Source of the DNA: an uncultured Prevotellaceae bacterium
Lineage (GTDB): Bacteria; Bacteroidota; Bacteroidia; Bacteroidales; Bacteroidaceae
Direction of reading: 5' to 3'
Length of the DNA stretch: 64,000 nucleotides
Assembly: GCA_946626595.1 (NCBI GenBank)
Contig: CAMOUQ010000001.1
Coordinates: 65,846 to 129,845, forward strand
Each line of letters begins with the position of its first letter. The first letter of the stretch is position 1. Positions 4,465-40,117 of this stretch are shown piece after piece. A program made the translations under genes and the position numbers. Under the pieces are notes generated by a model. That model was given only the letters and a program-made list of their open reading frames with translations, had not been told where the DNA came from and did not search any database.

Positions 4465-4512
4465 TTTCTCATTCTCTCATTCTCTCATTTTCTCATTCTC
4501 CCTCACCTTCTC
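4461..4512 (-). repeat. (ATGAGARA)n repeat in mRNA-sense orientation bridging the porN stop to the OMP start
   Basis: Minus-strand ATGs lie at 4496, 4488, 4480, 4472 and 4464 with exact 8-nt spacing. The block is an inverted repeat of 4363-4405. Confidence 0.9.
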
Positions 4513-5576: not shown

Positions 5577-5604
5577 ATTATTTTCTATTTACAATTTTCA
5601 ATAT

Positions 5605-7158: not shown

Positions 7159-7170
7159 TTGTTTCTTTTT

Positions 7171-7227
7171 TTAGGGTTGCCTAGGATTGCCTGGGATTAC
7201 CTAGGAATGCATAGGAATGCCTAGGAC
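7171..7227. repeat. 10-bp tandem repeat x ~6 in the porL-porM junction
   Basis: ttagggttgc/ctaggattgc/ctgggattac/ctaggaatgc/ataggaatgc/ctaggac. The last unit contains the porL stop codon (TAG, 7221-7223). Confidence 0.9.
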
Positions 7228-8141: not shown

Positions 8142-8200
8142 ATTCTTATCTATTTTCCAGGGACGGCCCGATTGGCACGGTTGCCCTTGGGTTCTATGGA

Positions 8201-9652
8201 TTATTTCTTTTTGTTAGGTTGTTTCGAGTTGTCGTTCACCATAGAGCGTACGCAGCGGAAGCCGATGTACGAGCGCGGTTGGTTTTGATATTCATAGGTA
8301 CGCCAGGCCGAGCGAATCATGCTCTCGGGGTCCTTCCACGAGCCGCCTCTGACACTTTTCTTCTTCAGGCGGTAGGGGTCTTCCTTCGCTGCGTTGTACT
8401 TCAGTTCGGGATTCATGTCGCTCATGCTCTCCACGCCGGCCTCGGTGAACACGGTGCTGGTCCATTCGGCCACGTTTCCGGCCATGTCGTAGAGTCCGTT
8501 GCTGTTGGCACTGAATCCGCCGCACTTCGAGGTTATCAGGCTGCCGTCCTCGGTATAGTTACCGCGGTCGGGCTTGAAGTTGGCATAGAAACAATTCTTG
8601 TCGCTCTTCACCTCGCCGCTCTCCCAGGGGAAGGGACTGCCCGATTTGCCACGGGCTGCATACTCCCACTCTATCTCGGTCGGCAAGCGGTAACGCTGTA
8701 TCTGCTTGGCCATGCCGCCCAGCCCCTTCAGGAGGAAGTTGGTGCGCCAGGCGCAGAAGGCATTTGCCTGTTCCCAGGTGACCCCGACCACGGGATAGTC
8801 GTCGTAGGCGGGATTATTGAAGTAGAGCTTCATGTATCGCTCATTGTCAGCATTCCGGAAGTCGTTGACCCAGCAGGTCGTGTCGGGGAAAATGTTCACG
8901 ATGTAGGTATTCAGGAAGTCCCAGGGCCCACTGAGGGGTCGGGTGATGGTCTGACGCACAATCTTGCCGTCGTCGTCAATCCATGCCGTATCCTTGCTGA
9001 TCATCACCTCGCGGTTGCGAATCTCATCGTGACTGGCATCGGTGTTCAGGTCGCGTTCCTCGGGATTCAGGCGGAAGCGGCGCTGTGCGGCTGCCACGTA
9101 GTCGTAGATTTCGTAGCGATAGTTCATCTGACTGGCATCCAGCATCTTCGTCCCGTCGATGGGATGGGTGACGTAGACACTCTCAATGGCACGTTGCTCG
9201 TCCTCGTTGGCCTTACGCCAGGGGATGGCCTTGTTCCAGTTCAGATACGGAGTGATGGGATTTCCCTCCTTGTCCTCCTCTATCTTATACGTTTCGTCGC
9301 CACCGAAGGCGGGGTCGGCCAGGCGTTCGCGGATGATGCTGTCGCGCACCCAGTTGACAAACTGACGGTACTTGGCATTCGAGACTTCCGTCTCGTCCAT
9401 CCAGAAACCGTCTACCGAAATATCACGTTTCGGGAAACCGGCGCCCCAAAGGGTGTCATCCTCCTCTATGCCGACACGCAGGGAGCCCTTCCTGACAGGC
9501 ACCATGCCAAACGGCACGGGCTCGGAGAAACTGGTGCCCTTGACACCCGTCACCTCGCCGCCGACGGCATTGGCCGACGAACTGGAACCCATGCAGGCGG
9601 TCAGCATCATCAAAAGTAAAAAGTAGAAAGTAAAGAACAATGTCCGCTTCAT
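8201..9652 (-). CDS. porK: T9SS outer-ring lipoprotein PorK/GldK (FGE-sulfatase/SUMF1 fold)
   Basis: 483 aa with lipobox LTAC. SUMF1-type motifs: GLYDMAGNVAEW, RGGSW and IGFRCV. Confidence 0.92.
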   Translation of the reverse strand: MKRTLFFTFYFLLLMMLTACMGSSSSANAVGGEVTGVKGTSFSEPVPFGMVPVRKGSLRVGIEEDDTLWGAGFPKRDISVDGFWMDETEVSNAKYRQFVNWVRDSIIRERLADPAFGGDETYKIEEDKEGNPITPYLNWNKAIPWRKANEDEQRAIESVYVTHPIDGTKMLDASQMNYRYEIYDYVAAAQRRFRLNPEERDLNTDASHDEIRNREVMISKDTAWIDDDGKIVRQTITRPLSGPWDFLNTYIVNIFPDTTCWVNDFRNADNERYMKLYFNNPAYDDYPVVGVTWEQANAFCAWRTNFLLKGLGGMAKQIQRYRLPTEIEWEYAARGKSGSPFPWESGEVKSDKNCFYANFKPDRGNYTEDGSLITSKCGGFSANSNGLYDMAGNVAEWTSTVFTEAGVESMSDMNPELKYNAAKEDPYRLKKKSVRGGSWKDPESMIRSAWRTYEYQNQPRSYIGFRCVRSMVNDNSKQPNKKK

Positions 9653-9668
9653 AACTTTTTATATCATT

Positions 9669-9710
9669 TTAATTCTTATTCCTTAATTCTTAATTCTTAT
9701 CTCTTAATTC
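9669..9710. repeat. 7-bp tandem repeat x6 (TTAATTC family) in the porP-porK junction
   Basis: ttaattc ttattcc ttaattc ttaattc ttatctc ttaattc. The last base is part of the porP stop codon. Confidence 0.9.
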
Positions 9711-10651
9711 TACAACAGTCTCACGCTCTTGTGCAGGTTCTTTCCCTTCTTGAAGAGGTTCAGGTCGGTCTGATACCCAATCACGATTTCGTGCGTGCCG
9801 TGCAGCACTCCGATGCCTCCCGTATATGCTTCGTAGGCATAACCTATCTGCACACCGTGGAAGTTGGTTCCGACCAGGACACCGGCACTCACCGTCGGAC
9901 TGTACGACAGACCTGCATAGATGCGAAACTTCTCGCCGTTGTAGGCCATGCGTGCCGTTATGTCGCCGCGCCAGGCCTGGAAGTCTGTGCGCAGGATGCC
10001 CGTGGTGTAGAGCACGAATTCGGGATTTCGGAACCGGATGTTATAGCCACCCGTCAGGTAATAGAGCCTGTTCACCTTCATCTCATTCACCTTATCGTCG
10101 CCCAACTTCACGGTCGGGGCCGTCAGGTGCATCGAACTCAGACCGGCGTACCACAGTTGTTTGTAAGTGTATCGCAGGCCGAAATCCACGTCCAGGGCCA
10201 TGCCGTCCACCTGACTTGATGCGAATGCCGGGTCGCTGGGATCCCTGACATCGAGTTTCGAACCGTCGAAGGTTGCGTTCAGGAAGCCCACGCGGGCTCC
10301 TACGCTCAGGCGACCACCCCACAGCGGCTGGTGGAAGGCATATTGGAGGTACATCTTTTTATTGGAGAAGAGACCAATCTTGTCATTCATGAATCCCACG
10401 CCAGCGCCATGTCGCGGACTCAGGAAGAAGAGTGGCAGGTCGGCAGTGGCCAACATGGTCTGTGGAGCCTGATCGAATCCCACCATCTGCATGCTGAAGG
10501 CACCCTGTACATTGAGTTGCCCATCCAGACCGCTCGAGGCGGGGTTGAAGTAGGACTGCAGCGCCCAATAGTTAGCGAACGCTGCATCATACTGTGCACA
10601 GACAGGCAACGCCGCCAGCACGCCCACGACCAACCACAATAGTCTTTTCAT
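9710..10651 (-). CDS. porP: T9SS membrane protein PorP/SprF family
   Basis: 313 aa with a signal peptide ending CAQ. It has the family-typical start QYDAAFANYWALQSYFNPASSG and a beta-barrel-like repeat pattern. It is the first gene of the porPKLMN block. Confidence 0.85.
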   Translation of the reverse strand: MKRLLWLVVGVLAALPVCAQYDAAFANYWALQSYFNPASSGLDGQLNVQGAFSMQMVGFDQAPQTMLATADLPLFFLSPRHGAGVGFMNDKIGLFSNKKMYLQYAFHQPLWGGRLSVGARVGFLNATFDGSKLDVRDPSDPAFASSQVDGMALDVDFGLRYTYKQLWYAGLSSMHLTAPTVKLGDDKVNEMKVNRLYYLTGGYNIRFRNPEFVLYTTGILRTDFQAWRGDITARMAYNGEKFRIYAGLSYSPTVSAGVLVGTNFHGVQIGYAYEAYTGGIGVLHGTHEIVIGYQTDLNLFKKGKNLHKSVRLL

Positions 10652-13505: not shown

Positions 13506-13544
13506 CAGGCAGAAAACAATCAAGATATCATAAAAACGACACTT

Positions 13545-26723: not shown

Positions 26724-26772
26724 GATGAACGAACTCTCTTGTATTATCAAGAATTAGAGAATGAGAGAATTA

Positions 26773-28486: not shown

Positions 28487-28508
28487 CGTGTCCCATGCAT
28501 GGGACACG
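28487..28508. other. 22-bp perfect palindrome
   Basis: cgtgtcccatgcatgggacacg, with no T-tract after it. Confidence 0.8.
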
Positions 28509-28625: not shown

Positions 28626-28718
28626 ATGACGATATATCGTCACTTTTTCACCCTATCGTCACGCATATCGTCACGCCTGCAAGGCCGATGAATACTGGAT
28701 TCGTGACGATATGACGAT
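28626..28718. promoter_or_regulatory. cluster of six (T)ATCGTCA(C) motifs (three direct, three inverted) upstream of the sialidase promoter
   Basis: TATCGTCAC occurs at 28635, 28654 and 28666. The inverted form occurs at 28626, 28703 and 28712. The cluster includes the 16-bp palindrome tgacgatatatcgtca (28627-28642). Confidence 0.4.
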
Positions 28719-28736: not shown

Positions 28737-28768
28737 TTTGCGTGTTCGCTCACTTAATCGTATCTTTG
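28737..28768 (+). promoter_or_regulatory. Bacteroidota promoter: -33 TTTG and -7 TATCTTTG
   Basis: TTTG at 28737-28740 and TATCTTTG at 28761-28768, separated by 20 nt. The promoter lies 42 nt before the ATG at 28811. Confidence 0.55.
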
Positions 28769-28810: not shown

Positions 28811-31800
28811 ATGAAAAACAAAACCTTATTGCTAACTTTGCTGGCCATGATTATTGGCATCGCAGCAAAGGCTGATACAGGATGGAAAGTGACTGCTGGC
28901 AGTCAAGTGACTACGGAAGCCGCACTGGTGAGCGGAAAGCCCTATCTGGTTTATTACGTGGGATCTGGCAACCCTGGCTACATGAAGGACACTGGCACCA
29001 GCTACAACGCCCAAAGCGACCCGACGCCGGACCTGACGGCCGTGTACACATTCACCGACAACGGTGACGGAACATGGAGCGTGCAGAACCACAAGACCTT
29101 CAACTACTGGGGCACACCTACGGCCAACGCCACCACCTACTTCGGTTCGACCACTGCCGGTGCATGGGCACTCAACTTCCAGGCCAACGGCAACATTGCC
29201 CCGAGTTGCAACGGGCACAGCCTGAACCGCAGCAGCGGCAAGATTCATCCCTGGAGCACAGGCACCGCCGCGAGCAACCAGTTCAAGATAGAGAACGTGA
29301 CCATAGAGGAGGTGGAAGTGGACATGAACATCGTGACCAACCGCACACCGCTCTCCGCCGCTCCCTCGGGCGACGGATGGTACGTGATATCCGTCAAGTC
29401 GGGAACCTACGCCGGCCATACCGTATATGTGCCGGAAAGCGAAATCGAGTATCAGGCCAACCGCAACTATCCACTGTCATTCAGCAAGGTGGACGGACAG
29501 CCCACCATCGACAACACCGTCTACTACACCCACATCGCCAAGACGGCCAACGGCTACGCATGGCAACTACCCAACGGGCGATACCTGAGAGCGTATAACA
29601 AATTCTTCCCTGTGAGCACAGAGGAGACCGTAGAAAACGTCTCCATCACCTACAGTGCCGGCAACGGCATGCAATTCATCCACTCTGGCTACAAGGCCAT
29701 ACCCTATTATCTGGGCAGCAAATACTTCATCGGCGAGACGAACGGTACGGGAGGCTTTTTCGATGTCTACCCCATCGACCTGGCCGAGGCCAGACTCACT
29801 GCCTGGCGCGTCATTATTCCCTCTGCCGGTGCCGACACTCGCTTAGCCTGCACCCGCGACGATGTCAAGGGACTGACATCTGTCTACAACGGCGGTTACT
29901 TCTTCCTTCCGGCCGGGGTAACACCTACGACTGCCGACTTCGCGTTAGTCGGAATGCTGAATTGCATCGTGGATGCCGAGGCACAGACAATTACCGTCGA
30001 GTACGACCCGACGCTGGCCATCCTGCCCGACGGCGTCTCCGTGGCCCAGGGCTATCAGACAGCCGGACGCGACAGCGAGGTGATGCTGCTGAGCATAGTG
30101 GCCAAGCCTTTCCGCAATGCCACGGGTGCCAGCTTTGGCATCAGCCTGAAGGACGGAGCCGAGGCGCTAATCAGTAAGCTCACACTCTATGAAGCATCGA
30201 ACGAATCTCCCGAAATCATGTCCACCGGCAGCGGTGCTCCCACCAAGACGGTCTTGGCCGAAGTAACCAATCCCCAGGCTGCGACCGACATGGCCATCGG
30301 CAACCTGACCGCTGGCAACCACTACTATTGGCTGGCTGCTACCGTGAAGGGCGACGCCCCCGTCGGCAACATTCTGGATGCCGCTGTCACCAGTCTGACC
30401 TACACCTGCTATGGTGCGCAGACCACCTTGGACCTCACCGATGCCGGCGACCCCGCCGACCGTGGTGCGATGGTCTTCGAGACGCGCAGCTATCCCTTCC
30501 TACCTCGCGACAATGGCAGTCGCGTCTATCGCATACCAGCCCTCGTCACTGCCGACGACGGTTCGCTGGTGGCGGCCGTCGACAAGCGCTATGACAGCTT
30601 CAGGGACATCGGCGGCGGACATGTCATCGACATCGTCGTGCGCCGCAGCACCGATGGCGGCAAGACCTGGGGCGACCCCGTGGTAGTGGCCAAGGGCCTG
30701 GGCACCGCGGACGATGCGAAGTGTGGTTACGGCGACCCGTCGCTCACCAAGGGCAAGGACGGGCGTCTCTATCTGCTCTTCGCAGCCGGCAACACGGGCT
30801 ACTTCTACGGTCTGAACCGCATCTGCATGTCCACCTCCGACGACAACGGTGCCACATGGACGACACCCGTCGACCTCTATGAGACCGGACGCATCACCGA
30901 CCACGCATCGTCCTTCGGCAGCACGCCCTGCTATGGACTCTACGACTACTTCGTGACCTCGGGCAAGGGACTCTACACCCACGACGGTGTACTGATGTAT
31001 CTGCTGCCCGCTCAGCCATACACCAATGCCGAAAAGACGGAGAAGACAAACAACTCGCACGACTTCGTATTCTACAGCACCGACGACGGGGACACGTGGC
31101 ACATCAGCGAGACACCGGCCTTTGTGGGCGGCGACGAGGCCAAACTGGAACAGGCCGACGACGGTTCGCTCATCGCCTCCGTGCGCCAGAGCAACCAGCG
31201 CGGCTTCAACACCGGCACTTACGTCAAGAACGACGACGGCACCGTCACCTTCACTTGGGATCAGCAGTACAACACCTCGCAACTGACCGCTGGCGGCTAT
31301 CCCAACAATCAGGACATCCTCTACTATAGCCGTGCCACCGACCTCACTGGGGCCGACACCGGCGAACCCGACATCCTGCTGCACACGATGACCACCGGGC
31401 AGCATGCCAACCTCAACCTCTTCATGAGCCTGAACGGCGGTGAGGACTGGAAGCTGGTATGCCAGATACAGCCCAAGGGTGTACGATATGTCACGCTGAC
31501 CAAGCTCCAGAACGGCAACCTGGGCATGCTCTTCGAAGACCAGGGCCTGAACGAAGCCGGCGGCTACACCGACTACAACCACTACCCCATCAACTTCCTC
31601 ACCATCACCCGCGAACAACTGCTCGCATGGTACGACGAGGCAAAGCCCTGGTTCGAGGAACAGGAGTTGGAGGGCAAATTCGTAAAGATTGTTCAAGGCT
31701 TGACTGGGCACACCACCTACGGAACGCTGTCCGGCGACACATGGACCTCCAAGAAGCATACTGGCAACAAGATAGAAGGACTCACACTCACGAAGTCGGA

Positions 31801-32692
31801 CGGCAAATTCGACCAGTTCTCCACCTGGAACGGCCACTTCAACCTGGCCTATCACCCCGCCATGGCCAACGTACCCGCCACACTGACACTGCAGGCCCCC
31901 GAGGGGTACCTGATCAAGGGCTATTCGCTGCTTGCTGCCAAGGCCTACAGCGCTGCCCACACCTACACCCTGGAGGCTGAGGACGGCACCACCATCACGC
32001 CGAAGTTTGCAAGTTCGGCTGCCGACTTCACAGAACTGAGCCAGACGGACATCTATGCCAAGACGGCCACAATCTCTGTCACGACTACAGATGTCTCCAA
32101 ATTCTTGGCCATTGCCGACTTCGTGGTAGAACTGACACAGGAGTACCCGCTGGCTCTCCATGCCATCGGTGATGCCTCCTACGGCACGCTTTATCTGCCC
32201 TTCGGCATCACACTGCCCAACAACGTTACGGCCTACAAGGTAGCCGTGAACGGCGAGTGGGTCATCCCGACATCGATGGGCCAGGAACTGCCCAAGGAGA
32301 CGCCCGCTCTGCTCTATTCGGCAGAAGGCGCGACGACGGCCCAGGCCACCATCAACGACAAGGCCACGGCCGACGCATCGGGCAACCAGCTGCAGGGCGT
32401 GCTCACGAAGCAGCACGTCGACGGCTACGTGCTGAATCAAAAGGACCAGGAGATTGGATTCTTCCGTCTGAGCAGCACCGGCGAACTGGACGCCTACCGC
32501 GCCTACCTGCCTGCCAATGTCGGAGAGGTGAAAGGCTTCATCCTGAACTGGAGCACCGATGGGATTGAGAAAATGAGAGATGGAGAAAATGAGGAAATGA
32601 GAAGTGCCATCTTCGACCTTAGCGGTCGGCGCGTGACTAAGGCACGGAAGGGCATCTACATCATGAATGGGAATAAGGTGATTGTTGAATAA
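28811..32692 (+). CDS. multidomain exo-alpha-sialidase (GH33) with N-terminal lectin-like domains, C-terminal accessory module and T9SS sorting tail
   Basis: 1293 aa. RIP motif: RVYRIPALV. Asp-boxes: STDGGKTW, SDDNGATW, STDDGDTW and SLNGGEDW. Tyr/Glu region: YVTLTKLQNGNLGMLFED. Tail: AIFDLSGRRVTKARKGIYIMNGNKVIVE. Confidence 0.88.
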   Translation: MKNKTLLLTLLAMIIGIAAKADTGWKVTAGSQVTTEAALVSGKPYLVYYVGSGNPGYMKDTGTSYNAQSDPTPDLTAVYTFTDNGDGTWSVQNHKTFNYWGTPTANATTYFGSTTAGAWALNFQANGNIAPSCNGHSLNRSSGKIHPWSTGTAASNQFKIENVTIEEVEVDMNIVTNRTPLSAAPSGDGWYVISVKSGTYAGHTVYVPESEIEYQANRNYPLSFSKVDGQPTIDNTVYYTHIAKTANGYAWQLPNGRYLRAYNKFFPVSTEETVENVSITYSAGNGMQFIHSGYKAIPYYLGSKYFIGETNGTGGFFDVYPIDLAEARLTAWRVIIPSAGADTRLACTRDDVKGLTSVYNGGYFFLPAGVTPTTADFALVGMLNCIVDAEAQTITVEYDPTLAILPDGVSVAQGYQTAGRDSEVMLLSIVAKPFRNATGASFGISLKDGAEALISKLTLYEASNESPEIMSTGSGAPTKTVLAEVTNPQAATDMAIGNLTAGNHYYWLAATVKGDAPVGNILDAAVTSLTYTCYGAQTTLDLTDAGDPADRGAMVFETRSYPFLPRDNGSRVYRIPALVTADDGSLVAAVDKRYDSFRDIGGGHVIDIVVRRSTDGGKTWGDPVVVAKGLGTADDAKCGYGDPSLTKGKDGRLYLLFAAGNTGYFYGLNRICMSTSDDNGATWTTPVDLYETGRITDHASSFGSTPCYGLYDYFVTSGKGLYTHDGVLMYLLPAQPYTNAEKTEKTNNSHDFVFYSTDDGDTWHISETPAFVGGDEAKLEQADDGSLIASVRQSNQRGFNTGTYVKNDDGTVTFTWDQQYNTSQLTAGGYPNNQDILYYSRATDLTGADTGEPDILLHTMTTGQHANLNLFMSLNGGEDWKLVCQIQPKGVRYVTLTKLQNGNLGMLFEDQGLNEAGGYTDYNHYPINFLTITREQLLAWYDEAKPWFEEQELEGKFVKIVQGLTGHTTYGTLSGDTWTSKKHTGNKIEGLTLTKSDGKFDQFSTWNGHFNLAYHPAMANVPATLTLQAPEGYLIKGYSLLAAKAYSAAHTYTLEAEDGTTITPKFASSAADFTELSQTDIYAKTATISVTTTDVSKFLAIADFVVELTQEYPLALHAIGDASYGTLYLPFGITLPNNVTAYKVAVNGEWVIPTSMGQELPKETPALLYSAEGATTAQATINDKATADASGNQLQGVLTKQHVDGYVLNQKDQEIGFFRLSSTGELDAYRAYLPANVGEVKGFILNWSTDGIEKMRDGENEEMRSAIFDLSGRRVTKARKGIYIMNGNKVIVE
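32141..32692 (+). repeat. copy 1 of a ~0.56-kb near-identical C-terminal module shared by the two sialidase genes
   Basis: By eye it aligns to 38972-39547 at roughly 85-90% nucleotide identity, far above the rest of the two genes. Confidence 0.85.
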
Positions 32693-32753
32693 AGGGACCC
32701 TAAAGGCCCTTAGAAACTCTAAGAACTCTAAGAACTCTAAAGATAATACTATC

Positions 32754-32906
32754 ATGAAAAAGAATTATGTTGCACCAGAAATGACGGACGAGCGTTTCGT
32801 TACCGACGACCAGTTCATGGACATTGCCTCGCTGCAAGTCTACGAGGAGGAAACCGACGAGGGATATGCCCCCGCGGAAGAATGGTCTTACTGGGTCGTA
32901 TTGTGA
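32754..32906 (+). CDS. 50-aa acidic small ORF between the two sialidase genes
   Basis: MKKNYVAPEMTDERFVTDDQFMDIASLQVYEEETDEGYAPAEEWSYWVVL. This is the inner ATG of track ORF 32682..32906. It lies 61 nt after the upstream stop and 53 nt before the next ATG. Confidence 0.3.
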   Translation: MKKNYVAPEMTDERFVTDDQFMDIASLQVYEEETDEGYAPAEEWSYWVVL

Positions 32907-32959
32907 CCGGGAGTGTGTGTGTTTACGAAGTTATATAAACCTATTATCCTTTTGGCCAA

Positions 32960-35900
32960 ATGAAAACCAAGAAGTTGCTAATACTGGTGGCACTGATTGC
33001 CACAACATGTTGCGCATTCGCTGACAACGCAGTCTCGATGCTCCTGCCAAAGCCTCACGAACTGTCAGAGAACGCCGCAACCTTTGACCTCACACGCAAT
33101 GTGAGCATCACGGACCCCACAAACTCTACGCTTCTGGCCTCGCTGTTCACGACTGGCGGCTCCCCGTCTGCCACGGTGACGGTAAGTCTGGTAAGCGATG
33201 CCACCCTTGGCACCTTCGACTACACACTGGCCGGCTTCCCCAACGAGGGTTACAAGCTGGAGGTCACCACCGATGCCATCACCATTCAGGCTGTGACCAA
33301 GACCGGTGTCATCCGCGCTGCACAGACGCTCATGCAACTCGCAGCAGCCAACGGCGGCACCAGCATCCCCGGTGTGAGCATCACCGACTGGGCCGCCTTC
33401 AAACTGCGCGGCTACATGCACGACGTAGGCCGTTCCTTCGTCAGTTTCGACGAACTGAAGAAGGAGGTCGACCTGCTCTCGCGCTTCAAGGTAAATGTTT
33501 TCCATTGGCACCTGACCGACAACCAGGGTTTCCGCTTCGAGTCGAAGACCTATCCGCAGCTCAATCAGGCTACCAACATGACACGCTTCGCCGGTCAGTA
33601 CTATACCCAGGCGCAATGCACCGAACTGGAAGCCTACGCTGCCGAGCGCGGCATGATTATCATACCCGAGATAGACATGCCCGGCCACAGCCAAGCCTTC
33701 CAGACCGCCATGGGATTCGCCATGAACAGCGAACAGGGCAAGCCCGTGCTGAAAGCACTGCTCGACGAACTGGCTGCCGCCTTCCCCCTGGCGCCCTACT
33801 TGCACATCGGCTGCGACGAGGCTGGCACGACGGCGGCCTTCGTCAACGAAATGTCGCAGTACGTGAAGGAGACGCTGGGACGCCGCGTGCTCGTATGGAA
33901 CCCCATCAGTGGCGTCAGCATCAGCAAGGCCAACCTCCCCTACATCGACATGACGGAAATGTGGGGCACAGCCGGAAAGAAGATTGACGGACTGCCCAAC
34001 ATCGACTGCCGCTACAACTACATCAATCACTTCGACGTCTTTGCCGACCTCGTGGGCATATACAAGAGCAACATCTACTACACCGACAAGGGCAATGCCG
34101 AGGTGGCCGGAGCCATCTCAGGTCTGTGGAACGACCGCAAGACACCCACCGAGACCGACATCATCCGCCAGAACAACCTGTGGGCCAATGCCATCGCCAC
34201 TGCCGAACGAGGATGGATGGGCGGCGGCAAGCAGTACATAGAAACGGGCGGCACCACTCTGCCCAACAGCGGCAGCGAGTTTGAGGAGTTTGCCGACTGG
34301 GAACGTCGTTTCCTATATTATAAAGGCACGTGGCTCAAGGACGAAAGCATCCCCTATGTGAAGCAGACCAACATACGCTGGCGCATCACACAGCCCTTCC
34401 CCAACGGTGGAACGGCCACTGCTGCCTTCCCACCCGAAGAGAGCACGGCCGACGTGCTGCCCGACGAATACACCTATGACGGACAGACCTACACCACCAG
34501 CATGGCCACAGGCGGAGGCATCTACCTGCGCCACGTATGGGGCACCATCGTTCCCGCCTTCTTCAGTTCGCCACAGCTCAACACCACGGCCTATGCCTGG
34601 ACCTATGTCTATTCGCCCACCGCACAGACGGCCGGAGCCCTCATCGAGTTCCAGAACTATAGTCGCTCGGAGAACGACAAAGCACCCGACAATGGCAACT
34701 GGGACCGCAAGGGTTCGCGCATCTGGGTGAACGGCAGCGAAGTGGCTCCGCCCACCTGGGGCAATGCCGGAAAGAGCATCAACAGCGAAGTGGACTTGCA
34801 GAACGAGAACTTCACGGCCCGTAAGCCTATCGCCATCAGCCTCAAGGCCGGATGGAATAAGATTTTCCTCAAACTGCCCTATGTCAGTGCCAGCAACGTG
34901 CGTCTGAACAAATGGATGTTTACCTTCGTACTTACCGATGCCGAAGGCAAGAACGCCCTCGAGGGCATCACCTATTCGCCCATACAAAGTCTGGATGCCA
35001 ACATCGACGATGTGGTTACCATCATAGGCGACATCAAGACCTATGTCCACAGCAAGTGCGGCACAGCCGTGGGCCTCTACCCCGAGAGCGCCGCCACCGA
35101 CCTTCTGGCTTCCGTGGCCACCGTGGAAGCCACCCTGCAGAGCACCCTCACCGCTGACGAGCGCGAAGCCCAGGTCGCCAACCTGCAGTCGGCCTTTGAG
35201 ACTTTCAAAAGCAATCTTGCTACCGCTGCCATCAACCAGCCCCTGGCCAGCACAGCCAGCGAGACCCACTACTACACCCTCTGCACGCCACAGCGCGGCA
35301 GTCGTTACGTGACTTCCTCCGGCGCAGGCGCTGAACTGGGCGGCACACCGACATTGGTTGCCACCTCCTACTGGAAGTTCGTGGCCCGTGCCGATGGTGC
35401 ATGGGACATCGTCAATGCCTACGACGATTCATACATTGCCCCCAACAGCACCAACAACACCGCCCTCACCGCTTCCGTCACATCGCCCTCTGCAGGCTGG
35501 AAAATCAGCAAGGCCTCAACCGACGGACAAGTCATCATCACCTCCGGCAACTGCCAATTCAACCAGACCAACACCAGCAGTTCCGTGCTTTCTGGCGGCT
35601 ACCGCCTCTTTAACTGGGGCAACGGCACCAACACTACCGACACGGGCTGCCAGTATGCCATAGAGGAGGTGGACGAGGCGGACATTCCCTATTCCTTTTC
35701 CTTCAAACCGTCGGATGCTACAGTCTACACCCTCAACAACACCTCCAGTGCCAACCGCGGTGCCCTCGTCTACGACGGTTCATCCACGAACGTCAGTCTC
35801 GTAGCCAGCGCCAACCTCGACGCCACGAACCCCAACCACCAGTGGGTGCTCTACCCCACCGGAACTGTGGGTCAGTATTATCTTTATAACGTCGGGGCCC

Positions 35901-38900
35901 GTAAGTTTGCCATACCCACCGCCATCGCTCAGAGCGACAAGAACGCATGGGTGTTCAGCGACAATGCCGTGGCCGTCAGCCTCAACAGCGAAACGGTTGG
36001 CACCTACCGCATCAAGATGGCCAAAGACCCTGTCAGCGGCACCAATGAGGCCGTCCTCGGTGTGAACCGCAACCTCAATCCTGCCGTGTTCAACTACAAC
36101 GACGCTGGCAGCGACTTCACCATTACCCTCGTCAAGGGAGCCGACCAGAGTGCAGCCGTCAAGGCCGCGGTAAGCAAACTCATCAGCAGTCAGAAGCCAC
36201 TCACCTCCTACCCTCAGAGCTCCGGCTGGTACGCCATTCAGATTAAGAGCAAGAACGGGGCTGCTGCATACGCCGGTCGTTTCATGCAGGCCGCGGCTTC
36301 GCTGTACAACGGCCTTTATCCACTCATCTTCACGGGAGCCATCGACCTGCAGCCCGCCATCTCGGAGCCCACGTTTCTCACCTACATCGATCATACCAGT
36401 TGGGACGTCAACACATGGCAACTGCCCGACGGACGCTACCTCGTAAAGAATGCCAGCAACAAATTCCCTACACTTTCGCTCACGCCGGGCAACGTGCTCT
36501 GCGGATATGACAATGGCAACTACTTCAAGACCGAAGGCGATTGGTTCGCCGACCCCTACAACAGCGGTGCCAATTACTTTTTCGGTGAGACGACATCGAT
36601 GCGCACGGCCTACACCGTCTATCCCATCGACCTCGATGCAGCCGGTCTTGCCCCATGGCAGGTAACCATCACCAACGGCTCGGCCTCAACGCTGCTCACC
36701 TGCAAGCGCTCCGACGTCAAGGGGCAGACGGCAGTGTATTCCGGAGGCTATTTCTTCCTACCCTCCGATGTGACGCCCAAGGCCACCGACTTTGCCATGG
36801 AAGGCATGATAGGCTCTCCGGTGATTGATGCCGAGAACAAGACCATCAGCGTACAGTATGACCCCAGCGTCAGCCTCCTGCCCGACGGCATCGACATCAT
36901 CCAGGGCAATGAGACCACAGGCAAGGGAAATGCCACATCGGCCCTGCTGCGCATGAAGGTGACACCCTTTGCCACCACCACGCCCACCGAGGTCAGCATC
37001 ACCCTCAGCGGATCCGACCAGATAAGCAAAGTGGCCGTCTATGCCACCGACATCGACGAACTGCATGCCAAGGCCGCCAGTCCTGTCAAGCTCGGCGAAG
37101 CCACCGTTTCTGGCCAGAGCGCCCTCTCCATCACGATGGACAACCCCACAACCATTGCCGTCGGCACATCGGCCTATCTCTGGGTAACTGCCGATGTCAA
37201 GGCCGACGCCACCGAACTGGCCACCATCGATGCAGCCATCACCTCGCTGACGTACACCAACGATTACATCAAGGCCAACGCCCTGGAAGCCAACGTACTC
37301 GACCTCACGGCCAAAGGCAACCCCGACGGACAGATGTGCATCTACAAGCAGCAGACGGCCCTTTGGACACCCGACCATGCCAACGGCATCTACTACCGCA
37401 TACCCACCATGCTCTGCACGGACGATGGCAACATCGTGGCACTGGCCGACTATCGTCACGACCACCCCTACGACCTGGGAAAGAATGCCAGCAACGGCCT
37501 GGGTGCCCACGTCATTGACGTCGTGGCACGCCGCAGCACGGATGGCGGACTCACCTGGCAGGACGAAACCGTAGTGGCAGCCGGAGACGGGAAGAATGCT
37601 AATACCTGGGGCTTCGGCGACCCGGCCATTGTAGCCGATGCCGACGGTACGCTCCACTGCCTGATGGCGGCCGGTTCCACCAGTTATGCCAGCGGCAGCG
37701 GCATGCTGGCCATGGGCTACTCCAAGAGTAGCGACGGCGGTGCCACATGGACTGCCGTCAAGGACATCTATGACGACATCGACAAAGGTGGGCTCACCAT
37801 AGCTTCAGCCTTCACTTCGGGCGGCAAGGGTGTCACCTTCGCCAATGGGCGCATGGCTTTCGCCTTCCTCGGCAAGGTTGGCGGCACCACCAACGTCTAT
37901 CCCATCTATTCCGACGACAAGGGCCAGACCTGGCACATACAGCCCACCGTGGCCTACGGCGGAGGCGACGAATCGAAGTTCGAGATTATGAACGACGGTT
38001 CCCTGCTCCTCTCCGTGCGCAAGGGCGGCTACAACGGTACTGCCCTGCGAGCCTACAACCGCACCACGGGCGACGCCAGTGGCGAAGGCATCGGTTCGTG
38101 GGGCACGGCAGCCAACTGGGGCAGCGAGATGAATGCCAACGGTTGCAACGCCGACATTCTCTACTACAACCGCTCTACCGATAACCCCAACCGCCCCGAC
38201 GTCATCCTGCACACGCTGACCAAGTCGTACAGCACCTACCGCAAAGACCTGCGCCTCTATGCCAGCTTCGACCAAGGGCAAACGTGGAAGGAGGCATTCC
38301 AACTGCAACCCGGATATGCGGCCTACAGTTCCCTGCAGAAACTGCCGAATGGCGACCTCGCCATCATCTACGAAGACGGTAGCATTGGCAACAAGGACCA
38401 GCAGGACTGCTACGCCATGAACTACATCGTGCTCAGCAGCGAGGCCCTCAATGCCCGCATCGATGAACTGTATAAGGAGTCGCTCTACACCACGGCCAGC
38501 ATCATCACCCAAGGCGAGACGAATACCAACGCACCGTTTGTGACCTGGACTCCCTCCTCGGGATGGGCTACCTCCTTCACCACCAATGCCACCTCTGGTC
38601 TGGCAGGCGTCACCGTCAGTGCCACCTCACAGGCCTTCAATCGCCAAGGCGGCTATGACCAGCGCGTATTGCTCTTCAGGCCCACCGCCGCAGGAGCCAG
38701 CGACGTTTACACCATCACAGCCCCCGACGGATACATCATCGACGGCTACACCATCGGCGGTTACTTTGGCACCAGCACGCAGACCTATACGCTGACAGCC
38801 GAGGACGGCACCTCTGTGGCCATCAACAAGAACAAGGCCCAACAGAACCCGCCAACGTACCTCACCATCAGCGGCCTGAACAAGAAGAGTACCACCATCA

Positions 38901-39547
38901 CCTTCTCCAACAGCAACACTGCAAACACCACTTATGCCTTCATCACCCACTTTGTGGTGAAACTCACGAAGCAGTACCCACTGGCCCTCCATGCAATCGG
39001 CGATGCCTCCTACGGCACGCTTTATCTGCCTTTCGGCATCACACTGCCCAACAACGTTACGGCCTACAAGGTTGCCGTGAACGGCAATTGGGCTATCCCG
39101 ACATCGATGGGACAGGAACTGCCCAAGGAGACGCCGGCCCTGCTCTATTCTGCAGAAGGCGCGACAACGGCCTTAGCCACCGTCAACGACGCAGCCACGG
39201 CCGACGCATCGGACAACCAGTTGCAGGGCGTGCTCACGAAACAGCACATTGATGGCTATGTGCTGAACCAGGACGGCAATGATGTCGGATTCTTCCGACT
39301 GAGCGGTAGCGGTGAACTGGACGCCAACCGTGCCTACCTGCCTGCCAATGCTGGAGAGGTAAAAGGCTTCATCCTGAACTGGGACACCGACGGGATTGAG
39401 AAAATGAGAAGTGGAGAAAATGAGAAAATGAGAAATGGAGAAAATGAGAGAATGAGAAATGCCATCTTCGACCTCAGCGGTCGGCGCGTGAACAAGCCTC
39501 AAAAGGGCATTTACATCATGAATGGGAATAAGGTGATTGTTGAATAA
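32960..39547 (+). CDS. 2195-aa fusion: GH20 beta-N-acetylhexosaminidase + lectin-like/beta-sandwich domains + GH33 sialidase + shared C-terminal module + T9SS tail
   Basis: GH20 motifs: HWHLTDNQGFRFESKTYPQL, IIPEIDMPGHS and LHIGCDE. GH33 motifs: IYYRIPTML. Asp-boxes: STDGGLTW, SSDGGATW, SDDKGQTW and SFDQGQTW. Also YSSLQKLPNGDLAIIYED. Tail: AIFDLSGRRVNKPQKGIYIMNGNKVIVE. Confidence 0.88.
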   Translation: MKTKKLLILVALIATTCCAFADNAVSMLLPKPHELSENAATFDLTRNVSITDPTNSTLLASLFTTGGSPSATVTVSLVSDATLGTFDYTLAGFPNEGYKLEVTTDAITIQAVTKTGVIRAAQTLMQLAAANGGTSIPGVSITDWAAFKLRGYMHDVGRSFVSFDELKKEVDLLSRFKVNVFHWHLTDNQGFRFESKTYPQLNQATNMTRFAGQYYTQAQCTELEAYAAERGMIIIPEIDMPGHSQAFQTAMGFAMNSEQGKPVLKALLDELAAAFPLAPYLHIGCDEAGTTAAFVNEMSQYVKETLGRRVLVWNPISGVSISKANLPYIDMTEMWGTAGKKIDGLPNIDCRYNYINHFDVFADLVGIYKSNIYYTDKGNAEVAGAISGLWNDRKTPTETDIIRQNNLWANAIATAERGWMGGGKQYIETGGTTLPNSGSEFEEFADWERRFLYYKGTWLKDESIPYVKQTNIRWRITQPFPNGGTATAAFPPEESTADVLPDEYTYDGQTYTTSMATGGGIYLRHVWGTIVPAFFSSPQLNTTAYAWTYVYSPTAQTAGALIEFQNYSRSENDKAPDNGNWDRKGSRIWVNGSEVAPPTWGNAGKSINSEVDLQNENFTARKPIAISLKAGWNKIFLKLPYVSASNVRLNKWMFTFVLTDAEGKNALEGITYSPIQSLDANIDDVVTIIGDIKTYVHSKCGTAVGLYPESAATDLLASVATVEATLQSTLTADEREAQVANLQSAFETFKSNLATAAINQPLASTASETHYYTLCTPQRGSRYVTSSGAGAELGGTPTLVATSYWKFVARADGAWDIVNAYDDSYIAPNSTNNTALTASVTSPSAGWKISKASTDGQVIITSGNCQFNQTNTSSSVLSGGYRLFNWGNGTNTTDTGCQYAIEEVDEADIPYSFSFKPSDATVYTLNNTSSANRGALVYDGSSTNVSLVASANLDATNPNHQWVLYPTGTVGQYYLYNVGARKFAIPTAIAQSDKNAWVFSDNAVAVSLNSETVGTYRIKMAKDPVSGTNEAVLGVNRNLNPAVFNYNDAGSDFTITLVKGADQSAAVKAAVSKLISSQKPLTSYPQSSGWYAIQIKSKNGAAAYAGRFMQAAASLYNGLYPLIFTGAIDLQPAISEPTFLTYIDHTSWDVNTWQLPDGRYLVKNASNKFPTLSLTPGNVLCGYDNGNYFKTEGDWFADPYNSGANYFFGETTSMRTAYTVYPIDLDAAGLAPWQVTITNGSASTLLTCKRSDVKGQTAVYSGGYFFLPSDVTPKATDFAMEGMIGSPVIDAENKTISVQYDPSVSLLPDGIDIIQGNETTGKGNATSALLRMKVTPFATTTPTEVSITLSGSDQISKVAVYATDIDELHAKAASPVKLGEATVSGQSALSITMDNPTTIAVGTSAYLWVTADVKADATELATIDAAITSLTYTNDYIKANALEANVLDLTAKGNPDGQMCIYKQQTALWTPDHANGIYYRIPTMLCTDDGNIVALADYRHDHPYDLGKNASNGLGAHVIDVVARRSTDGGLTWQDETVVAAGDGKNANTWGFGDPAIVADADGTLHCLMAAGSTSYASGSGMLAMGYSKSSDGGATWTAVKDIYDDIDKGGLTIASAFTSGGKGVTFANGRMAFAFLGKVGGTTNVYPIYSDDKGQTWHIQPTVAYGGGDESKFEIMNDGSLLLSVRKGGYNGTALRAYNRTTGDASGEGIGSWGTAANWGSEMNANGCNADILYYNRSTDNPNRPDVILHTLTKSYSTYRKDLRLYASFDQGQTWKEAFQLQPGYAAYSSLQKLPNGDLAIIYEDGSIGNKDQQDCYAMNYIVLSSEALNARIDELYKESLYTTASIITQGETNTNAPFVTWTPSSGWATSFTTNATSGLAGVTVSATSQAFNRQGGYDQRVLLFRPTAAGASDVYTITAPDGYIIDGYTIGGYFGTSTQTYTLTAEDGTSVAINKNKAQQNPPTYLTISGLNKKSTTITFSNSNTANTTYAFITHFVVKLTKQYPLALHAIGDASYGTLYLPFGITLPNNVTAYKVAVNGNWAIPTSMGQELPKETPALLYSAEGATTALATVNDAATADASDNQLQGVLTKQHIDGYVLNQDGNDVGFFRLSGSGELDANRAYLPANAGEVKGFILNWDTDGIEKMRSGENEKMRNGENERMRNAIFDLSGRRVNKPQKGIYIMNGNKVIVE
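38972..39547 (+). repeat. copy 2 of the shared C-terminal module
   Basis: See 32141-32692. It differs by a 24-nt (three 8-nt units) expansion of the GAGAAAAT repeat. Confidence 0.85.
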
Positions 39548-39596
39548 TGAATGGTTCTACCGAGTCATACTATATTCTTACACACTTGTATAATTA

Positions 39597-39644
39597 AACC
39601 TGAAAGGGATGTGCCGCTCGGCACATCCCTTTCAGGTTTTTTTT
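39597..39644. terminator. bidirectional rho-independent terminator
   Basis: 20-bp stem aacctgaaagggatgtgccg / cggcacatccctttcaggtt, followed by T8. It lies between convergent genes. Confidence 0.85.
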
Positions 39645-39656
39645 GTATCTTAACGT

Positions 39657-40070: not shown

Positions 40071-40117
40071 TCTCTCATTTTCTCATTTTCTCATTCTCTC
40101 ATTTTCTCATTCTCTCA
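40071..40117 (-). repeat. (ATGAGARA)n repeat bridging the AKR stop to the FMN-binding gene start
   Basis: Minus-strand ATGs lie at 40110, 40102, 40094, 40086, 40078 and 40070 with exact 8-nt spacing. The AKR stop TGA (40117-40115) lies within the array. Confidence 0.9.

Follow-up and report, generated by a model that had tools for sequence, protein, structure and literature searches.

An uncultured Prevotellaceae bacterium, most likely of ruminal origin, carries a module of two large genes and one small gene, in which the second large gene is predicted to combine complete GH20 and canonical GH33 active sites on a single signal-peptide chain. Within the window (the whole 64-kb stretch of DNA that was analyzed; features are on its forward strand unless otherwise noted), ORF1 (28811..32692; 1293 aa) encodes a secreted, GH33-only protein of a His/Arg-swapped subclade, and ORF2 (32960..39547; 2195 aa) encodes a secreted GH20-GH33 fusion. 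Signal peptides are present on both chains (aa 1-21 in ORF1). Both reading frames are uninterrupted over their full length. An assembly artefact can be ruled out as the source of the fusion, as a 2195-aa protein of 99% identity is present in an independent assembly. Taking the module as a whole, we lean toward reading its products as giant multi-modular exo-glycosidases, exported by Sec, whose extracellular targets are glycoconjugates capped by sialic acid or a related acidic sugar.

The fusion is a widespread family of rumen Prevotellaceae MAGs, not a rarity. Of the 120 best database clusters, about 115 have GH20 and GH33 in a single ORF, as do 21 species-level genomes, and the carriers, clusters and genomes alike, are almost all ruminant Prevotellaceae MAGs. 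The family is labeled at NCBI as ‘family 20 glycosylhydrolase’. The initial annotation was aware of no characterized GH20-GH33 single-chain enzyme, and our literature searches agree, having found no paper on such a fusion.

Both catalytic assignments are confirmed by HMM searches, which detect GH20b, GH20, and BNR_2 in ORF2 and BNR_2 in ORF1. The GH20 half of ORF2 (33041..34399) comprises a Glyco_hydro_20b match (aa 28-144; 65 bits) and a catalytic barrel (aa 147-480) that matches Glyco_hydro_20 at 137.5 bits (cut-off 22.3). Alignment to Hex1T of Paenibacillus sp. TS12 (3GH4) recovers the hallmarks R150, HWHLTD187, PEIDMPGH243, and the catalytic pair D286-E287 in HIGCDE, in line with the complete GH20 domain originally proposed. 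Hex1T and the Bacteroidota GH20 structures 4PYS, 6Q63, and 7CBN have the same combination of GH20b with a (beta/alpha)8 catalytic domain, and the D-E pair and the HxHxxD and PGH motifs are common to all. Unlike these enzymes, the ORF2-type GH20 is tied to an unannotated 200-aa module (m1), which accompanies it in every case across loci, and is fused to GH33 in rumen Prevotellaceae. The GH33 propeller of ORF2 (aa 1465-1820; 37352..38419) matches BNR_2 at 66.6 bits (cut-off 31.4) and aligns with R1480 (of the RIP motif), D1505, E1671, R1687, R1761, Y1789, and four canonical Asp-boxes in place. It is closest to the P. gingivalis sialidases (8FEB, 8GN6; E 2e-36) and to those of M. viridifaciens and T. 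forsythia.

The middle of ORF2 (34400..36181) can be divided, by co-occurrence in loci, into m1 (aa 481-680), m2 (aa 681-770), and m3 (aa 771-1074), whose functions are suggested by prediction: m2 would be a helical linker, and m3 appears to consist of beta-trefoil/ricin-like repeats (RicinB_lectin_2 at E 7e-4). The N-terminal domain of ORF1 (aa 22-165; 28874..29305) is weakly similar to m3 (secondary BLAST alignment, E 0.1). From the pre-sialidase domain to the tail, ORF1 shares the architecture of ORF2; the proteins align over ~1170 aa at 42% identity (BLAST), and the DNA of the ORF2 3′ part from ~38941 is 89-91% identical to the ORF1 3′ end. All motifs quoted earlier for the shared pre-sialidase domain, such as YFIGET, VYPIDL, and GGYFFLP in ORF1, were found (ORF1 aa 174-410, 29330..30040; ORF2 aa 1075-1310, 36182..36889). 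The AF2 model of the ORF2 domain is confident and beta-rich, with no specific PDB match in the fold comparison. A predicted CBM93-type, sialidase-associated binding module lies directly N-terminal of each GH33. In ORF2 (aa 1311-1445; 36890..37294), it matches BNR_assoc_N at E 2.9e-5, under the gathering score, and its model matches the N-terminal domains of 4FJ6, 6MRX, 4Q6K, 7QY9, and 4BBW at a Foldseek probability of 1.0; in ORF1 (aa 411-545; 30041..30445), it is assigned by homology to the ORF2 module. Each propeller is followed by a beta-sandwich and a C-terminal module (ORF1 aa 935-1090 and 1091-1240, 31613..32530; ORF2 aa 1830-1986 and 1987-2140, 38447..39379). The AF2 model of this C-terminal third is of moderate confidence only, and its fold matches are generic, of the jelly-roll type in ORF1.

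The GH33 of ORF2 would be a retaining exo-alpha-sialidase and its GH20 a beta-N-acetylhexosaminidase with substrate-assisted catalysis, the two active sites being separated by several putative lectin-like beta-sandwich and beta-trefoil modules. In the most likely mode of action, the binding modules would keep the enzyme attached to a polymer with dense glycosylation, for example mucin of salivary or epithelial origin, both of which occur in the rumen (PMC8136628), or another glycoprotein. There, the GH33 site would take off the terminal acidic cap first, and the GH20 site would then release the exposed beta-GlcNAc or GalNAc. The suggestion of two exo-glycosidase activities on one secreted chain is upheld insofar as both active sites are complete beside a signal peptide, but the order of action, like the identity of the substrate, is something that we infer.

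The claim that the pair harvests host mucin or N-glycans finds no local support. Neither sialate lyase, epimerase, and transporter genes nor a SusC/D pair occurs in the window or beside two relatives on long contigs, and the window neighbors are all plant-cell-wall enzymes (GH43, GH5, GH97, PL1/GH105, and PL11; also CE8). The host-sialoglycan reading is unproven, given the lack of genes for sialic-acid catabolism in the vicinity, but plausible, its plausibility coming from the CBM93-like module and from M60 peptidase linkage: in one relative the fusion sits beside a Peptidase_M60 (mucinase-type) gene, and in another a metalloprotease is fused into the same chain as GH20-GH33. Instead of host Neu5Ac or Neu5Gc, the acidic sugar could be a different 2-keto-3-deoxy acid that occurs in the rumen, namely Kdo or Dha of pectic rhamnogalacturonan II, Kdn, or a nonulosonic acid of bacteria or archaea, such as legionaminic or pseudaminic acid, with GH20 acting on HexNAc polymers of microbes or fungi, for instance chito-oligosaccharides. 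The module would then be part of the surrounding plant- and microbial-glycan degrading arsenal, whose members are all pectin, arabinan, or hemicellulose enzymes and include a PL11 rhamnogalacturonan lyase bearing the same tail as ORF1 and ORF2. Activities listed for GH33 do include Kdo hydrolase and KDNase (PMC9120202), linked nan genes are missing, and in ORF1 the carboxylate-binding site is rearranged, a Cys is changed to Asn, and a loop is inserted, which suggests an altered substrate pocket. This alternative is strongest for the ORF1-type subclade. We nevertheless consider it unlikely, given that the ORF2 GH33 is nearest to bona fide sialidases and retains every canonical residue, that each GH33 domain follows a module of a type found in Bacteroidales sialidases, and that fusion to GH20 and linkage to M60 or metalloprotease domains in relatives point to glycoproteins.

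Intact GH33 cores had been claimed for both proteins, and this holds for ORF2, with its full residue set and four Asp-boxes, but not for ORF1. The ORF1 propeller (aa 560-925; 30488..31585) matches BNR_2 at 57.5 bits and has R574, D599, E776, R792, and R892-Y893, with His865 where the third Arg is expected; three Asp-boxes are canonical, and the fourth is degenerate (SLNGGEDW). R892 directly precedes the nucleophile Tyr893, and the His/Arg swap shows perfect covariation in alignments (19/19 sequences of the variant type against 0/120 of the canonical type), which marks out an unannotated GH33 subclade containing ORF1. In effect, the third carboxylate-binding arginine would have moved from its usual strand (His865) to the residue preceding the nucleophile (Arg892-Tyr893). 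Because the triad is rearranged throughout the subclade, the ORF1 substrate should not be assumed to be Neu5Ac, and because the canonical triad is absent, activity on sialosides is uncertain; ORF1 probably contributes a second, different specificity, either for linkage or for sugar. The same arrangement, with a swapped-type gene upstream of a canonical-type fusion gene, is seen again in L007 and L009 and, by alignment, in L010.

A more radical possibility is that the ORF1 GH33 is catalytically dead or strongly impaired, and that the propeller instead binds sialoglycans as a lectin or adhesin, tethering the cell or the partner enzyme to substrate, much as in the inactive trans-sialidase family members of trypanosomes. 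The His865 replacement and the degenerate Asp-box are compatible with such a role, and T. forsythia NanH loses its activity when the triad arginine R212 is mutated (PMC9472817). Yet 19 representative clusters, reaching down to 42% identity, show strict conservation of Tyr893 with its partner Glu776, of the acid/base residue Asp599, and of the two remaining arginines, and loss of the Arg is always paired with gain of an Arg at Tyr-1, a pattern that signals catalysis kept under selection through compensation, not decay. The swapped subclade is also itself fused to GH20 in four loci (L002, L005, L017, and L020). We regard an inactive propeller as quite improbable.

Both proteins end in a tail of ~45 aa: GIE...IFDLSGRRVTKARKGIYIMNGNKVIVE in ORF1 (32552..32689), with an 8-bp-repeat-derived linker at 32563-32603, and its counterpart in ORF2 (39383..39544), with an in-frame repeat of 24-bp period (39397-39461) whose units encode GENEKMR. 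Together with a signal peptide, the tail occurs on 5-6 secreted CAZymes within the window, and across the window and related loci 44 distinct ORFs carry it. It is an autonomous module, since some homologues have it without the preceding module. It is strictly C-terminal, restricted to signal-peptide proteins, and joined to unrelated catalytic domains, which is the behavior of T9SS C-terminal domains. The identification of these tails as T9SS signals stands in part: they are conserved, and a T9SS core operon (porP/sprF, a gldK-like gene with the FGE-sulfatase fold, gldL, gldM, and gldN; 4503..10651, reverse strand) lies in the window, but PF18962 and TIGR04183 match neither tail at E<=10, and only one of 33 related tails reaches TIGR04183 (E=0.14). 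The tail profile weakly matches the RgpB T9SS C-terminal domain (5HFS, 7PQ4, 5AG8, and 5AG9; E 0.007-0.03); no other non-self PDB match of the profile has a known role. Like the type A domain of P. gingivalis RgpB (5HFS, 5AG8), the tail is C-terminal, has an IFDLSGRRV strand that aligns with IFDMNGRRVA, and carries a GxY motif before the last strand; RgpB ends in KVIVK and the tail in KV(I/V)VK, a stretch that did not score on its own in the profile comparison. Unlike the ~70-80 aa RgpB domain, the tail is without the first strands and without the hairpin that follows the GxY motif and precedes the last strand. Most likely, this short, non-canonical tail is a shortened relative of the type A domain, and it would direct export or surface attachment via the T9SS encoded 20 kb upstream.

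Alternatively, the tail could be some other sorting or anchoring element, involved in outer-membrane-vesicle targeting, cell-surface glycan binding, or oligomerization, on proteins that reach the surface by another route. Escape from both profiles, a length about half that of the canonical domain with the N-terminal strands absent, and retention of the tail in the deposited sequences of the crystallized proteins 4KCA and 7JVI speak for this reading. The match to RgpB, its similar C-terminal end, the strict placement on signal-peptide proteins with varied catalytic partners, and the T9SS genes of this genome all argue the other way, and we assign this explanation a low probability.

Upstream of ORF1, an operator-like array (28626..28718) contains three direct copies and one inverted copy of TATCGTCAC / GTGACGATA repeats together with TGACGATA half-sites, and it may regulate the module. 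As originally noted, clustering is evident, with 5 of 14 window-wide matches to TATCGTCAC (<=1 mismatch) falling within 86 bp (28626-28711); the exact 9-mer of the array is found only once elsewhere in the 64 kb, and no conservation of the array DNA was seen in other species. The accompanying claim of a dedicated promoter (28737..28768) comes down to a TTTG (28737-28740) and a putative -7 box, TATCTTTG (28761-28768; ~43 nt upstream of the ORF1 ATG), read by eye against the Bacteroidetes consensus TAnnTTTG. This stretch of approximately 40 nt resembles sequences at other loci (blastn); a sigma-70 scan is uninformative for promoters of this phylum. The small ORF reported between the two large genes encodes 50 aa (MKKNYVAPEM...WSYWVVL; 32754..32906) and belongs to a conserved, unannotated peptide family typically positioned upstream of giant secreted genes. 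ORF1, ORF2, and this small ORF may form a single operon. The reported terminator follows ORF2, between convergent genes, as an intrinsic-terminator-like hairpin (39596..39647) with a 20-bp stem, a 4-nt loop, and a T-run (stem to T-run, 39596-39639).

The closest known systems each share part of this organization. In the Bacteroidales sialidases T. forsythia NanH (7QY9), B. thetaiotaomicron BTSA (4BBW), P. distasonis 4FJ6, and P. gingivalis 8FEB/8GN6, an N-terminal beta-sandwich CBM precedes a six-bladed GH33 propeller, as here, and ORF2 matches them in its RIP Arg, acid/base Asp (+25), Glu/Arg (+16), third Arg, Tyr nucleophile (+28), and Asp-boxes. However, these CBM93-GH33 enzymes are ~510-545 aa with one catalytic domain, whereas ORF1 and ORF2 have at least five extra modules and are set apart by the C-terminal sorting tail and, in ORF2, the fused GH20; none of them shows the His865/Arg892 swap of ORF1. 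On sialoglycoconjugates, the same pair of activities works together in B. fragilis, where sialic acid co-induces separate nanH, nahA, and estS genes (PMC3969230), and in the co-regulated T. forsythia nan cluster. In these species the activities reside on separate polypeptides in a nan operon that also provides NanOU (SusC/D-type) uptake and NanL/NanE catabolism, whereas ORF2 joins them in one polypeptide and has neither uptake nor catabolic genes linked to it. Rumen Bacteroidota are also known to export multi-catalytic CAZymes via T9SS (PMC5831590). The GH5-GH5, GH8-CBM6-GH11, and GH5-GH26 enzymes of ‘Ca. Paraporphyromonas polyenzymogenes’ are, like ORF2, giant two-catalytic-domain proteins with a C-terminal sorting signal, encoded in non-PUL clusters of a rumen organism with T9SS genes (PMC5831590). 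Their C-terminal domains are found by TIGR04183, which misses the shorter tail of ORF1 and ORF2, and they target plant fiber, whereas the ORF2 pair is predicted to target a terminal acidic sugar and HexNAc.

The reading frames of ORF1 (28811..32692, plus strand, 1293 aa) and ORF2 (32960..39547, plus strand, 2195 aa) are both unbroken, and a Pfam scan assigns BNR_2 to the former and Glyco_hydro_20b, Glyco_hydro_20 and BNR_2 to the latter. From its N terminus, ORF2 comprises a signal peptide (aa 1-21), GH20b (aa 28-144, PF02838), GH20 (aa 147-480, PF00728), an unannotated module that we call m1 (aa 481-680), a linker predicted to be helical (aa 681-770), beta-trefoil-like repeats (aa 771-1074; RicinB_lectin_2, E 7e-4), the pre-sialidase domain named by the initial annotation (aa 1075-1310), a CBM93-like module recognized by fold match (aa 1311-1445), GH33 (aa 1465-1820, PF13088), a beta-sandwich (aa 1830-1986), a C-terminal module (aa 1987-2140), and a short tail (aa 2142-2195). 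Starting with the pre-sialidase domain, ORF1 has the same domain order as ORF2; paralogy extends from aa 174 of ORF1 and aa 1074 of ORF2 to the C terminus, with 42% identity overall. The 3' ends of the genes share 89-91% DNA identity in blocks of 300 and 127 nt, a sign that the C-terminal module and tail recently underwent gene conversion.

The GH20b and GH20 domains of ORF2 both score above their curated thresholds (PF02838, 65 bits vs. 26.1; PF00728, 137.5 bits vs. 22.3), and the solved structure closest to the N terminus is Paenibacillus Hex1T (3GH4; E about 1e-38 to 1e-40). The catalytic pair D286-E287 lies in HIGCDE, which aligns with HLGGDE of 3GH4 and 8BBL, and the remaining hallmarks of the family are found at R150, HWHLTD187, and PEIDMPGH243. 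This part of ORF2 is a predicted beta-N-acetylhexosaminidase of family GH20, a family that also includes lacto-N-biosidases and sulfo-GlcNAcases. Module m1 is a constant companion of this GH20, including in genomes of Muribaculaceae, Bacteroides, and Alloprevotella without the GH33 part. At related loci L035, L037, L038, L041-L045, L047-L049, and L053, whose MAGs are labelled Muribaculaceae, Bacteroides, Alloprevotella, Porphyromonadaceae and, in one case, Clostridium, GH20 and m1 form a unit that lacks GH33 and often includes the beta-trefoil-like module and this short tail. Given these GH33-less units in MAGs of other lineages, GH33 seems to have been gained by the unit within the rumen Prevotellaceae lineage.

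An assembly chimera or frameshift joining GH20 to GH33 can be ruled out. An independent ENA assembly encodes a 2195-aa protein (P0001) that is 99% identical to ORF2, on a contig that ends just upstream, at the repeated 3' module, and no stop or frameshift separates the two parts; further, GH20 and GH33 share one ORF in 21 of 54 related loci, representing 21 species-level genomes. These 54 loci, found in a species-level genome collection, come nearly all from forestomach MAGs of cattle, goat, sheep, yak, and deer labelled Prevotellaceae or Bacteroidaceae, with no cultured isolate among them. Among the 120 best database clusters, about 115 combine PF00728 with PF13088, at lengths of 1447-2661 aa, and the few with names are called ‘family 20 glycosylhydrolase [Bacteroidaceae/Bacteroidales bacterium]’. 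The GH20-GH33 architecture is a widespread family and not a singularity. Full-text literature searches found no paper on such a fusion, in agreement with the initial annotation, which knew of no characterised single-chain enzyme of this kind. As a predicted natural single-chain sialidase-hexosaminidase, ORF2 is a tool candidate for one-pot glycan trimming.

The GH33 domain of ORF2 scores 66.6 bits with PF13088 (cut-off 31.4) and is closest among solved sialidases to the P. gingivalis-type structures 8FEB and 8GN6 (phmmer E 2e-36). Residue roles were taken from NanH, whose catalytic set is R212, D237, E407, R423, R487, and Y518 (PMC9472817), and the acid/base Asp was placed by its +25 spacing from the Arg of the RIP motif. 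As in NanH, the set is complete in ORF2: an arginine triad (R1480, R1687, R1761), the nucleophile pair Y1789/E1671, and the acid/base D1505, at the spacings D1505 (+25), R1687 (+16), and Y1789 (+28), along with four SxDxGxTW Asp-boxes. ORF2 thus carries a canonical sialidase active site and is a predicted exo-alpha-sialidase. The GH33 domain of ORF1 is also recognized (aa 560-925; PF13088 57.5 bits vs. 31.4; E 1e-32 to 8GN6) and keeps Y893/E776, D599, the RIP Arg R574, and the second Arg R792 at the same spacings as the canonical set, with His865 at the position of the third Arg, a column that is Arg in 120/120 canonical sequences. Its fourth Asp-box is degenerate (SLNGGEDW).

Decay is not the explanation for the altered triad of ORF1. 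An exhaustive search of 1.84 billion representatives returned, among the best 150 matches, 19 sequences with a substitution of the third Arg (18 His, one Phe), conserved down to 42% identity to ORF1. All 19 have an Arg just before the nucleophile Tyr (‘RY(V/A)TM’; R892-Y893 in ORF1), whereas the 120 canonical sequences never have one there (residue counts A 90, C 13, G 8, S 4, V 3, D 1, Q 1), and it is this covariation, 19/19 versus 0/120, that argues against decay. Arg892 may stand in for the missing third Arg. By general propeller topology, the position before the Tyr lies in the D-A loop on the active-site face, so a relocated guanidinium there is geometrically plausible. The swapped subclade is further marked by an Asn (N832) in place of a Cys that is 94% conserved and by a conserved inserted loop (Y804, F814), and where a member is named at all, the name is ‘glycoside hydrolase [Prevotella sp.]’. 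It offers a natural experiment on the supposedly invariant arginine triad of sialidases and may hide a new specificity.

What the initial annotation had read from the sequence largely stands. Every motif it quoted is present in ORF1 or ORF2, and profile searches place PF02838, PF00728, and PF13088 above cut-off with the GH20 catalytic pair in place. Its statement that both GH33 cores are intact holds for ORF2, with the full catalytic set and four Asp-boxes, and fails for ORF1, whose triad is non-canonical and whose fourth Asp-box is degenerate; its T9SS tail, in both ORFs, goes unrecognized by PF18962 and TIGR04183.

The modules flanking GH33 were compared at the level of modelled structure. 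An AF2 model of ORF2 aa 1075-1445 is confident (pLDDT 84.7), and Foldseek matches its last ~155 residues, with probability 1.0 over about 155 aligned columns, to the carbohydrate-binding domain at the N terminus of Bacteroidales sialidases (4FJ6; 6MRX, Sialidase26; 4Q6K; NanH 7QY9; BTSA 4BBW). PF14873 matches the same module at E 2.9e-5, under its gathering score. The module directly before the propeller is, on the strength of this model, a CBM93-type sialidase-associated fold with predicted sugar binding. The pre-sialidase domain, the first ~235 residues of the model, is beta-rich with no specific Foldseek match. For aa 1829-2195 the model is weaker (pLDDT 68.9), and the post-GH33 domain and C-terminal module gave only generic jelly-roll/CBM fold matches; a database search with the C-terminal module plus tail returned only 20 weak, unnamed fragments.

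The tandem arrangement of a GH33-only gene followed by a GH20-GH33 gene recurs at related loci L005, L007, L009, L010, L019, and L050, with much module shuffling elsewhere. A swapped upstream gene precedes a canonical GH20-fused gene in the window and at L007, L009, and L010, as a second analysis confirms for L007 and L009, and the swapped type is itself fused to GH20 at L002, L005, L017, and L020. This pairing pattern argues for two complementary specificities rather than redundancy. Other arrangements were also seen: at L056 (10001-26618) the genes downstream of the fusion encode a 1638-aa BNR_2 protein, then a small ORF product and a Peptidase_M60 protein, and the related protein P0106 combines GH20, reprolysin-like metalloprotease domains, and GH33 in a single 2661-aa chain.

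Between ORF1 and ORF2 lies a small ORF (32754-32906) for an acidic peptide of 50 aa with no signal peptide. At least 11 MAGs encode peptides of 55-62 aa at the matching position, giving a family span of 50-62 aa with the window's member and the pattern MKKxYxxP ... (Q/E)(M/L)(I/L)xxS ... IGFxK ... W(D/E)xDW. In most cases a giant signal-peptide gene, for a GH20-GH33 fusion or for an M60 peptidase, begins 4-300 nt downstream; family members lie in L003 (439-624), L007 (9528-9707), L008 (9809-9994), L009 (3780-3959), L010 (9806-9994), L019 (5671-5850), L050 (14291-14470), and L056 (23420-23599). A profile search extended the family to at least 114 clusters of 42-73 aa, the named ones all ‘hypothetical’ and from MAGs of Bacteroidaceae or Prevotella; in 23 contigs one member precedes a GH20-GH33 gene by 7-13 nt, and another instead lies behind a large unknown protein. 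No curated family in Pfam or NCBIfam matches at E<=10. These peptides before giant cargo genes constitute an unannotated family.

The shared tail is an autonomous module of ~45 aa with the pattern ‘GI.. x10-20 ..(Y/F)DLSGRR(V/I) x4-8 (K/R)G(I/V)Y(I/V).G(K/R)K(V).VK-stop’. Across the window and related loci, 44 distinct long ORFs end in this module, which follows unrelated catalytic domains and always lies at the stop codon, and in some homologues it directly follows the post-GH33 domain with no C-terminal module between. In the window it is carried by ORF1, ORF2, a GH43-CBM6 protein (26913-28427), a PL11 rhamnogalacturonan lyase (58252-62625), and a 1216-aa protein, with a weaker version on a GH5-GH43 protein (13503-16823). 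From its presence on the GH43-CBM6, PL11 and, weakly, GH5-GH43 proteins, the short tail appears to be the organism's general tag for secreted CAZymes. The 1216-aa protein (20994-24644, plus strand) has a signal peptide and no Pfam match; it is flanked by a hybrid two-component regulator (16986-20873) on one side and a GH97 gene on the other.

A canonical T9SS C-terminal domain is ruled out by Pfam and NCBIfam scans: neither TIGR04183 nor PF18962 matches ORF1 or ORF2 at E<=10, and across 33 related tails scanned singly PF18962 matched none and TIGR04183 one, at E 0.14. Compared with solved structures, the tail profile matches the C terminus of the rumen-metagenome GH43 arabinanase 4KCA (E 2e-11) and the beta-helix protein 7JVI (E 9e-7), whose deposited sequences contain the tail at their C termini, and also the T9SS C-terminal domain of P. 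gingivalis RgpB (four entries, E 0.007-0.03, over 22 residues on ‘IFDMNGRRVA’). The RgpB end ‘KVIVK’ resembles that of the tail, though this stretch has no score on its own. Tail-bearing ORFs have Sec signal peptides by inspection, and the window contains a T9SS core operon (porP, gldK-like, gldL, gldM, gldN; 4503-10651). From the RgpB match and this operon, we interpret the tail as related to the type A T9SS C-terminal domain but shortened, and consider T9SS export of its carriers likely. Should the tail prove to be a T9SS signal, surveys that rely on TIGR04183 would undercount the Prevotellaceae T9SS secretome.

Upstream of ORF1, an operator-like array (28626-28718) has TATCGTCAC in three direct copies and one inverted, accompanied by TGACGATA half-sites; of 14 matches across the window (<=1 mismatch), five fall within the 86 bp at 28626-28711. 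No conservation of the array in other species was detected by blastn. On its 3' side is a putative Bacteroidetes-type -7 box, TATCTTTG (28761-28768); a sigma-70 promoter scan, with a consensus unsuited to Bacteroidota, performed at chance level. A terminator-like hairpin after ORF2 (39596-39639; 20-bp stem, then a T-run) lies between convergent genes, and across the upstream and intergenic regions no Rfam family of structured RNA or riboswitch was found, the only matches being spurious miRNA ones on this hairpin. Downstream of the GH43-CBM6 gene, a perfect 22-bp palindrome, CGTGTCCCATG/CATGGGACACG (28487-28508), may serve as a terminator stem or as a site for protein binding. At 3570-3667 and 50237-50304 there are tandem repeats with units of 42 bp (x2.3) and 25 bp (x2.7). 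A dispersed 8-bp tandem repeat, GAGAAAAT/GAGAGAAT, occupies intergenic or gene-boundary sites (4367-4403, 4461-4500, 26750-26770, 40041-40130) and recurs inside the ORF1 and ORF2 tails (32563-32603, 39397-39461), in frame with a 24-bp period; the (G)ENEKMR units encoded there separate the ‘GIE’ part from the ‘IFDLSGRRV’ part. Its copy number differs between ORF1 and ORF2 and in the 99%-identical relative; slippage by one 8-bp unit would frameshift off the putative secretion signal, a speculative idea given that the repeats are imperfect.

Several features point to host-type sialoglycoconjugates as the substrate: the canonical sialidase site of ORF2, the CBM93-type module before each GH33, GH20 as fusion partner, the M60 gene at L056, and the metalloprotease domains of P0106. 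B. fragilis co-induces a GH20-class enzyme with its sialidase (PMC3969230), and mucins of salivary and epithelial origin are present in the rumen (PMC8136628). The target may instead be a non-host ulosonic acid, especially for the ORF1 subclade, since neither the window nor two long-contig relatives encode a sialate lyase, an epimerase, a sialate transporter, or a SusC/D pair, the neighbourhood consists of pectin, arabinan, and hemicellulose enzymes under a hybrid two-component regulator, and the activities listed for GH33 also include Kdo hydrolase and KDNase (PMC9120202); against such a target weigh the ORF2 site, the CBM93-type modules, and the GH20 and M60 associations in relatives. Roughly 40 long ORFs scanned across the window gave no Pfam match to a TonB-dependent receptor or SusD, so the region lacks the adjacent SusC/SusD-like pair of a PUL. 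The window also encodes a BD-FAE/alpha-beta-hydrolase esterase (50305-52446, minus strand) that, although the genome belongs to Bacteroidota, ends in a Dockerin type I domain (PF00404, E 1e-11); PF00404 is found on one GH20-GH33 relative, P0022, as well. The T9SS-delivered host-sialoglycan module proposed by the initial annotation is thus partly supported, by the sites of ORF2, and weakened by the lack of linked nan or SusC/D genes. If the enzymes act as predicted, uncultured rumen Prevotellaceae, usually seen as plant-fibre degraders, would widely encode giant secreted enzymes for sialic acid/HexNAc-capped glycoconjugates, which points to salivary/epithelial glycoprotein or microbe-on-microbe glycan foraging as an overlooked rumen trait.

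These elements can be joined in one model, which we offer tentatively and think unlikely to hold in all its parts. ORF1-type proteins would form an unrecognised GH33 subfamily in which the third Arg has moved to the residue before the Tyr; His865 and Arg892-Tyr893 would shape a different carboxylate pocket, accepting substrates unlike those of classical sialidases, such as modified sialic acids, Kdn, or bacterial nonulosonic acids. The tandem would be a deliberate two-specificity system, in which a GH33 gene of the swapped type precedes one whose canonical GH33 is fused to GH20, with export through a minimal 45-aa T9SS signal missed by current HMMs and with the dedicated, conserved 50-62-aa acidic peptide acting as chaperone or regulator for giant T9SS cargo.

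Both catalytic families are already known, as is the export of giant multi-catalytic CAZymes, T9SS-exported enzymes of this kind having been described from non-PUL clusters of rumen Bacteroidota (PMC5831590). New here are the widespread, uncharacterised GH20-GH33 single-chain architecture, the GH33 subclade with a putatively relocated Arg, the short C-terminal-domain-like tail missed by curated models, and the associated small-peptide family.
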